DNA of 21,407 nt from a virus, in the UHGV virus genome UHGV-0286550; one strand, 5' to 3'. Position numbers and translations under genes: made by a program. Below, one piece after another: positions 10,055 to 10,611 of the stretch. The notes beneath the pieces were generated by a model. The model was not told the origin of the DNA, made no database searches, and worked only from the letters and a program-made list of their open reading frames with translations. How positions within the stretch are numbered: the first letter of the stretch is position 1; each line of letters starts with the position of its first letter.

Positions 10055-10080
10055 AGCCCCTGCCTTGCAGGGGCTTTTTT
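10055..10080 (+). terminator. Rho-independent terminator after gemA
   Basis: Perfect 9-bp stem AGCCCCTGC / GCAGGGGCT with a 3-nt loop, followed by a TTTTTT run, 7 nt after the gemA stop. Confidence 0.8.
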
Positions 10081-10085
10081 GTGGT

Positions 10086-10114
10086 CTGTACAGGCGATCA
10101 TGTATGGCTATAAT
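10086..10114 (+). promoter_or_regulatory. Candidate promoter for the mor/C-type gene: perfect -10 TATAAT (10109-10114) with a weak -35 (CTGTAC/TGTACA)
   Basis: Seen in sequence between the terminator and the mor-like ATG. The weak -35 with a perfect -10 is typical of activator-dependent phage promoters. Confidence 0.45.
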
Positions 10115-10143
10115 AACAGTAAGTTACTACCGGAGACGCCATC

Positions 10144-10611
10144 ATGCAGACCTTCAGTGAAACAGATCTTCGCGATGCGCAGGCACTGCTGCCCGATTCC
10201 GTACAGCAACTGATTAGCGTGATTGGCTTCCCCGCCCTGACCCGGTTAATCCGTTCTTTTGGTGGCGTGACGTTAAGCGGTAAAACCGGCGCACACGCCG
10301 GACGCACCGGCGGTGTCCATGCCCTGTTACATGATGTGCTGACCGAAGACGAAATCAACAAACTGATCCGCTTTCTTGGCGGTGCACCGTTTTACATTCC
10401 CCGTTGTGATCATGCGTTACGTGCCCTGCGTAACACCCGTTTTATGGCTGATTTACAGCAGCATGTAAAAGACGGATGCTCACACCGGCAGGCGCTGGCA
10501 CTGCTCTGTCCCCGCTACGGGATTTCAGACCGGTACGCATGGCAGCTGATACACCGACGACAAAAACAGACTTCGCTGAAAAGCCCCACCCAGGTGGGGC
10601 TTTTTGATTAA
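10144..10611 (+). CDS. Mor/C-family transcriptional activator (155 aa)
   Basis: Contains the Mor/C-family signature FLGGAPFYIPRCDHAL (Mu Mor has LGGGQVYIPRGQAL). SD GGAGA 7 nt upstream. Cannot tell from sequence alone whether it acts as Mor (middle) or C (late) activator; it is the only family member in the window. Confidence 0.75.
   Translation: MQTFSETDLRDAQALLPDSVQQLISVIGFPALTRLIRSFGGVTLSGKTGAHAGRTGGVHALLHDVLTEDEINKLIRFLGGAPFYIPRCDHALRALRNTRFMADLQQHVKDGCSHRQALALLCPRYGISDRYAWQLIHRRQKQTSLKSPTQVGLFD
10582..10606 (+). terminator. Rho-independent terminator overlapping the last codons of the mor/C-type gene
   Basis: Stem AGCCCCAC / GTGGGGCT with loop CCAG, followed by TTTTT; the stop codon TAA (10609-10611) lies just after the T-run. 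Confidence 0.7.

Follow-up and report, generated by a model that had tools for sequence, protein, structure and literature searches.

How does a Mu-like prophage that carries a single gene of the Mor/C family turn on its late genes? The textbook model of transposable phages is the Mu cascade, in which early transcription leads to Mor, Mor acts at the middle promoter Pm, Pm leads to C and C turns on the late genes, and the early/middle junction of Mu has the order gemA-mor-t9.2/Pm-(gp18-20)-C. The window, by which we mean the whole stretch of 21,407 nucleotides analysed here, carries most of a Mu-like transposable myovirus prophage from E. coli, namely its left two thirds. As in Mu, gemA, a Mor/C-family gene, a terminator, a late promoter and the lysis genes follow one another in this order. 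Unlike this prophage, however, Mu has two paralogues and three stages.

A Mu-like prophage with a single C-clade activator

The left part of the window contains a CI-type repressor gene on the minus strand (1057-1704), a Ner-like gene, the genes for the MuA transposase (2123-4165) and MuB (4184-5077) and a run of small early genes. Further to the right are orf92 (9385-9663) and gemA (9635-10048, plus strand; Pfam GemA, 68 bits; annotated in RefSeq as regulatory protein GemA), the final early-region gene in this prophage. The gene for the Mor/C-family activator (10144-10611, plus strand) comes next and is followed by orf95 (10639-10926, plus strand; PHROG 7152), two holin genes and an M15 endolysin gene, and then by the terminase and head genes. 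A near-identical complete prophage of 36 kb is present in RIVM_C036569 (locus L001), with uspA and dtpB on either side. The cassette around the activator gene was found in 58 of 5426 complete E. coli genomes (~1%), including E2348/69, the EPEC reference strain within this prophage group. A blastn search against a phage collection returned similarity at the level of gemA only, to Pseudomonas VW-6B and Klebsiella Kp4852-3.

Several other features of the prophage were observed along the way. Two copies of TATCCGnnnGGATAA, 26 bp apart, lie directly 5' of the Ner-like gene (1829-1869) and are probably early-region operators of the Ner type. A perfect 12-bp inverted repeat, GCAGACCAAAAC-atgt-GTTTTGGTCTGC (9335-9381, z = -5.8), is accompanied by a third copy, GTTTTGGTC, which overlaps the ribosome-site region of orf92. 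This repeat is kept before orf92-gemA in E2348/69 and in other variants with different upstream DNA. It might serve as an operator or promoter module, much as Mu has an annotated promoter ahead of gemA. A DNA methyltransferase gene is located between DUF1804 and the large terminase gene (13124-13864). Non-specific adenine methyltransferases have been described from Mu-like prophages without mom (PMC3299994), and the enzyme encoded here may be related to them.

The activator has 155 residues and belongs to the C clade. It scored 28.3 bits against Pfam Mor (PF08765; cut-off 24.9) and 146 bits (E = 1e-42) against PHROG 836, the 'late transcriptional activator' family. It possesses the glycine-rich beta-strand linker and the subsequent C-terminal helix-turn-helix of the Mor/C family, and its segment 78-LGGAPFYIPR-87 aligns with LGGGQVYIPR of Mor and LGGRQFYIPC of C. 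The family profile aligns to residues 58-134 of MuC (PDB 9l0x) and matched Mu C better (E = 9e-4) than Mor (1rr7, E = 0.79). Likeness to Mu C, which also includes the GG..YIP strand, extends to the C-terminus QVGLF, a clamp-binding-type motif (QxxLF) that is present in every family member analysed here, with Q150, L153 and F154 nearly invariant. Nevertheless, the identity to Mu C is only ~28%. The QxxLF clamp-binding motif was defined for MuC, which needs the beta clamp and is lethal in overdose (PMC12867686).

The earlier note on this DNA had described the gene as the only member of the Mor/C family in the window, and had suggested either a cascade with one activator or a C equivalent whose Mor counterpart lies elsewhere. 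Using the window protein, Mu Mor, Mu C and the family profile as queries, we searched the six-frame ORFs of the complete 36-kb prophage with phmmer and hmmsearch. No second Mor/C paralogue was found there, the DNA just beyond the window included (the next best match had E = 0.46), and the gene is therefore the only one of its family not merely in the window but also in the complete near-identical prophage. Since the prophage has a single Mor/C-family gene, a one-activator cascade is supported as the best reading of the sequence. The other half of the earlier suggestion was borne out in part. Position, profile similarity and clade support the view that the gene is the C equivalent, as it lies immediately 5' of the lysis-gene late promoter, like C; the idea of a Mor equivalent elsewhere had to be dropped.

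Relatives of the activator were drawn from GTDB genomes, IMG/VR, metagenomes and exact-protein look-ups, and they differ in how the gene is wired. Class A comprises the relatives with the arrangement of the window, namely E. coli variants, a variant with 83% identity, and relatives from Salmonella (65%) and Edwardsiella (54%). Class B (for example, Trabulsiella and Buttiauxella) has a single activator gene that begins within the 3' end of gemA, in the manner of mor in Mu. Class C (Xenorhabdus, Photorhabdus and Morganella) has two paralogues, one of the Mor clade after gemA and the other ~1 kb downstream before the lysis genes. The window protein shares 44-55% identity with the downstream class-C copies, which occupy the C position, versus 32-40% with the upstream copies. 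It thus clusters with the C-position copies and, as the prophage has no Mor-clade gene, is a C-clade activator in a Mor-less prophage.

The activator gene lies between two predicted terminators

We indeed found a strong intrinsic terminator directly 3' of gemA, as the earlier note had claimed. At 10055-10081 on the plus strand, a 9-bp GC-rich stem, AGCCCCTGC / GCAGGGGCT, with the 3-nt loop CTT (10055-10075) adjoins TTTTTT (10076-10081). Folding gave -20.3 kcal/mol (z = -3.5), and this is the top-scoring plus-strand terminator of the window. A hairpin and a T run precede the promoter of the activator in all class-A relatives, where compensatory changes are seen and at least five different GC-rich stem sequences stand before the same promoter. 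From these features, the early transcript is predicted to end here.

The second terminator that had been described at the 3' end of the activator gene is likewise present (10583-10605, plus strand), within the last codons. It consists of GCCCCAC-CCAG-GTGGGGC (10583-10600) and T5, ends 4 nt upstream of the stop codon and has a folding energy of -20.6 kcal/mol. This terminator is dual-coding: the hairpin and U tract specify SPTQVGLF, and the U tract itself provides the Leu-Phe of the clamp-type motif. In Edwardsiella, the compensatory changes ACC>GCC and GTG>GCG convert SPTQVGLF into SPAQAGLF (T>A and V>A) and the stem is kept. Both terminators thus display a GC-rich hairpin, an adjoining U tract and compensatory change. 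Activator genes of classes B and C have no such 3' terminator. An Rfam search of 9200-11200 returned sub-threshold matches only, which were caused by the 3' terminator hairpin.

As judged from this arrangement, orf95 would be transcribed only by read-through of the 3' terminator. A divergent homologue of orf95 lies 3' of the activator gene in all class-A loci. The orf95 family travels with Mor/C genes more widely, although its alleles are only 34-47% identical: it is located 3' of the activator gene in class A and in one class-B locus, and 5' of the activator genes in two class-C loci.

A conserved putative promoter precedes the activator gene

Between the first terminator and the activator gene is a predicted sigma-70-type promoter (10086-10114, plus strand), here called P_C, which reads C-TGTACA, a 16-bp spacer and TATAAT. 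The earlier description of a perfect -10 with a poor -35 fits this site well, with TATAAT at 10109-10114 and TGTACA (4/6) at 10087-10092. P_C has the sequence features of a sigma-70 promoter, namely a 10/12 match, a perfect -10, hexamers 16 bp apart and conservation; it is the best sigma-70-like match of the window, and its TATAAT is the sole one within the prophage part of the window. The predicted start is near 10121. By itself, the 10/12 score is unremarkable, because windows resampled under a first-order Markov model that kept the dinucleotide transition frequencies contained a mean of 2.2 such matches by chance. The probability that one would land in this 95-bp co-oriented gap is ~0.005. 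Support for P_C therefore comes from its position in the gap together with its conservation in relatives, rather than from the score alone.

In the alignment of class-A upstream regions, CTGTACA, the spacer element GATCA (10096-10100), TG and TATAAT are invariant and the spacer is always 16 bp. The hexamers, the spacer length and GATCA are kept in relatives from E. coli, Salmonella and Edwardsiella with 54-92% protein identity, a conservation whose power is limited by the ~4 independent lineages of class A. Scans of metagenomes and IMG/VR added no new class-A lineage. In IMG/VR the P_C pattern was found solely before this activator gene, and the window holds no further occurrence of the motif.

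Could P_C nevertheless contribute little, the activator being made mainly through partial read-through of the gemA terminator, which would then attenuate the dose? Such an arrangement would be closer to that of Mu and many relatives, where the homologue is translationally coupled to gemA and has no terminator or promoter in between; intrinsic terminators are rarely 100% efficient, and a 10/12 match is not rare by chance. However, the hexamers and their exact 16-bp spacing are invariant in class A while the hairpin and the leader diverge, and the promoter has stayed with the cassette at every site to which recombination has moved it. The activator gene also has its own Shine-Dalgarno sequence (GGAG, 10132-10135, plus strand; 8 nt before the ATG at 10144), which, as read from the sequence, would provide an independent translation start. 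We therefore consider it improbable that read-through is the main source of the activator.

The mosaic structure of the prophages points in the same direction as the promoter alignment. In E. coli, the segment that starts at the T run and extends ~25 nt beyond the stop codon forms a conserved island between mosaic flanks, and BLAST matches start in or just after the 5' hairpin and stop before orf95, which places the breakpoints at the terminators. The 5' neighbour of the cassette varies, being either gemA itself or an extra ORF of 112-175 aa. Taken together, the conserved promoter and terminators, the island between mosaic flanks and the IMG/VR pattern support the notion that terminator, promoter, activator gene and terminator behave as one module. 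The proposal that the activator gene is a transcription unit of its own is thus strengthened, at the level of sequence, by two terminators with compensatory changes and a conserved promoter.

An additional observation concerns the 5' neighbour. Two loci, that of the Salmonella type and that of the variant with 83% identity (L070, 2359-2886; L073, 2350-2874), have an ORF of 174-175 aa with a signal-peptide-like N terminus between gemA and the 5' terminator. The ORF resembles a moron located where the early region ends.

Three late-type promoters share a putative activator element

Across the >30 loci collected, we identified 45 distinct promoter-like sites that combine CTGAAC(A/C)CC with a downstream -10 that fits nAnnnT and most often reads TAcACT. 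The distance between the element and the -10 is 29 bp at 44 of the 45 sites and 28 bp at the remaining one, and most of the sites lie before lysis genes. From 39 promoter-like sites, all of them from relatives, we derived a weight matrix. When run over the whole prophage, it picked out three sites and no more, all intergenic and co-oriented, at +13 to +32 bits; the next best reached +4.5 bits. The first, before the lysis genes (10952-11000, plus strand; +13.4 bits), comprises GGGTG-CTGAACACC-CCC (element at 10957-10965), 29 bp and TACCCT (10995-11000), and has no -35; this architecture is also present before the lysis genes of >10 relatives. The second precedes the protease/scaffold and head genes (18956-19004, plus strand; +32.2 bits) and comprises CTGAACACC (18961-18969), 29 bp and CATCAT (18999-19004). 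The third is outside the window, on the minus strand before the baseplate gene gp46 (element at 13089-13097 of L001). No fourth late promoter of the mom type was seen in the prophage. The consensus CTGAAC(A/C)CC, 29 bp, TAnAcT is directly usable for annotating the late regulon of these prophages.

If the -10 is placed at -12 to -7, the late element covers -50 to -42, and the outer TGA...TCA of the element make up an imperfect dyad with its centre at -43.5. In Mu, Mor and C likewise bind at sites with this centre (PMC4287176, PMC2582627). In silico, the three sites therefore look like targets of a Mor/C-family protein, in that they have a -10 and an imperfect dyad near -43.5 but no -35. On the two grounds of position and analogy, CTGAAC(A/C)CC is the putative binding site of the activator. 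The set resembles Plys, PI and PP of Mu: in both, three targets precede lysis, head and baseplate genes, and each target combines a -10 with an element of ~16 bp near -43.5 but has no -35. It differs in that the element is unlike that of Mu and that gp46, not gene P, lies behind the third promoter.

A hairpin of 12-13 bp surrounds GGGTG-CTGAA-CACCC at the lysis promoter (10945-10973; -21 kcal/mol on the plus strand). It has no U tract, and its long stem is not kept in relatives. An overlap of hairpin and activator site of the kind seen in Mu would hence occur, as far as the sequence indicates, at the lysis promoter and not at the activator's own promoter.

P_C differs from the middle promoter of Mu

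The earlier note had proposed that the activator could bind the terminator dyad upstream of P_C. Positive autoregulation of this Pm-like kind, in which the activator would bind at -66 to -46 and stimulate its own promoter, finds a parallel in Mu, where the hairpin that terminates early transcription is also the dyad of Pm to which Mor binds (PMC4287176), and in class C, where a late-type promoter (CTGAACCCC, 29 bp, AATACT) precedes the C-clade gene. The sequence upstream of P_C argues strongly against it. The fact that at least five different stems precede the same promoter points to a terminator constraint at the RNA level rather than to a protein-binding site. The dyad is centred at about -56 instead of -43.5, and positions -50 to -36 are GGCTTTTTTGTGGTC, the T tract of the terminator, so that no sequence-conserved dyad centred at -43.5 is found before the activator gene. 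In addition, the dyad is unlike CTGAAC(A/C)CC, and the late-promoter matrix scores P_C at -67.6 bits. Pm is Mor-dependent, has no -35 and uses the terminator dyad itself as the Mor site at -43.5, whereas P_C combines a perfect -10 with a partial but recognisable -35 that is invariant in class A as TGTACA at 16 bp, has no Mor/C-type element and has its terminator further upstream. Autoregulation through the dyad is thus very improbable, and by these sequence comparisons P_C is not of the late type and is without a Mor/C-type operator.

In class C, the predicted start of the late-type promoter lies within the 5' arm of a terminator hairpin (L005, 5908-6000; also L007, L010, L012 and L040-L057). 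Transcripts from upstream would therefore terminate at this hairpin, but transcripts from the late-type promoter would not.

A proposed mechanism for late activation

On the evidence above, we think it fairly probable that the locus is an insulated late-activator cassette. Transcription of the early genes would come from the left end and halt at the intrinsic terminator after gemA, and the sole C-clade activator would be transcribed from its own conserved sigma-70-type promoter, which has no Mor/C-type operator. The 3' terminator in the last codons would limit read-through into orf95 and the lysis genes, and the activator would then turn on the three late promoters for the lysis, head and baseplate genes. 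In comparison with Mu, the Mor step would be absent and a host-recognised promoter would take the place of Pm. Firing of P_C and termination at both terminators are predictions of the sequence.

How strong would P_C be? In the preferred reading it would be weak, because its -35 is without TTG and its spacer is 16 bp, and it would need no activator. A weak insulated promoter would become effective only once replicative transposition multiplies the template. This reading fits the requirement of Mor/C activators for the beta clamp and the lethality of excess MuC, which also suggests that the terminators would serve to keep the activator dose low. As replicative transposition raises the number of template copies and the activators need the beta clamp, the late genes would be on only after induction.

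A different view of the same promoter is that a consensus -10 could give appreciable constitutive expression. This should be dangerous in a lysogen, as the regulon includes holin and endolysin, and some additional control over P_C in lysogens is probable. The invariant GATCA, TG and C before TGTACA suggest an extra ligand or a methylation effect beyond a plain weak promoter. P_C might accordingly depend on, or be held off by, an early phage or host factor that reads C-TGTACA ... GATCA ... TG, either a non-homologous protein in the role of Mor or a silencer that keeps the gene off in lysogens. Beyond the harm expected from a constitutive late activator, such a factor would account for a -35 without the critical TTG and for a spacer with 8 of 16 positions invariant across class-A lineages, compared with only 2-3 positions kept in the 29-nt leader. 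Yet neither a candidate protein nor a repeated operator was found, and the motif appears nowhere else in the window. We regard control by such a factor as somewhat unlikely.

Several candidates for such a factor did not fit. By eye, CTGTACAGGCGATCATG gave no convincing match to the LexA, CRP, FNR or IHF consensus, and the sequence overlaps the core promoter, which is the wrong position for activation. A Ner operator was rejected, since the early-region operators TATCCGnnnGGATAA are unrelated to the P_C motif, of which the window has a single copy. Binding by the immunity repressor is unlikely as well, given that this protein differs among phages with the same promoter: where the promoter is identical, the repressors are only 43-70% identical or can be aligned only in their C-terminal half. 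Finally, the -35 region (CTGTACACC in Salmonella) was considered as a speculative autorepression site resembling CTGAACACC; it is 15 bp out of register with the late promoters and matches at only 5-7 of 9 positions.

Returning to the preferred reading of a weak insulated promoter, its most specific form would be a replication-coupled timer in place of the Mor step, in which a weak low-dose promoter reaches threshold through the multiplied template and clamp-loaded DNA. We put this forward tentatively, as an unlikely refinement. The IS10 and IS50 transposase promoters are sensitive to hemimethylation, and by analogy the Dam site GATC at 10096-10099 may add such sensitivity to P_C. If the timer operates, the last codons of the activator gene would serve twice, as a clamp-binding motif and as a terminator that insulates the late genes.

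Relation to known cascades

The cassette has much in common with Mu beyond gene order. In both, an intrinsic terminator at the (here predicted) end of the early transcript stands directly before the promoter of the next stage, and a terminator follows the activator gene just before the lysis promoter. The class B and C relatives possess an orthologous activator (44-55% identity) and the same late-promoter architecture as the window prophage. Sequence comparison thus suggests a new wiring variant of the known Mu-type cascade, not a new kind of system, and current understanding is not overturned. At least three wirings exist for the same C-type activator: one joins it to the early operon, one puts it after a Mor-type promoter in the presence of a second paralogue, and the third is the insulated cassette with a host-type promoter. 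These three wirings form a natural comparison set for asking what purpose the middle stage serves and how the late switch is kept silent in lysogens.

Outside the transposable phages, the arrangement is reminiscent of P2 ogr, which also encodes a small late-gene activator, has its own host-type promoter and lies outside the early operon. Late transcription of P2 also needs replication. Ogr differs in being an unrelated zinc-finger protein. [quoted passage not shown]

A further C-clade activator (50% identity) was observed in a context that is not Mu-like (L008, 5773-6453), downstream of a late-type promoter that reads CTGAACACT, 29 bp, TACCGT. There it adjoins a DUF927 primase/helicase-like gene, and a different type of mobile element seems to have taken the activator over.
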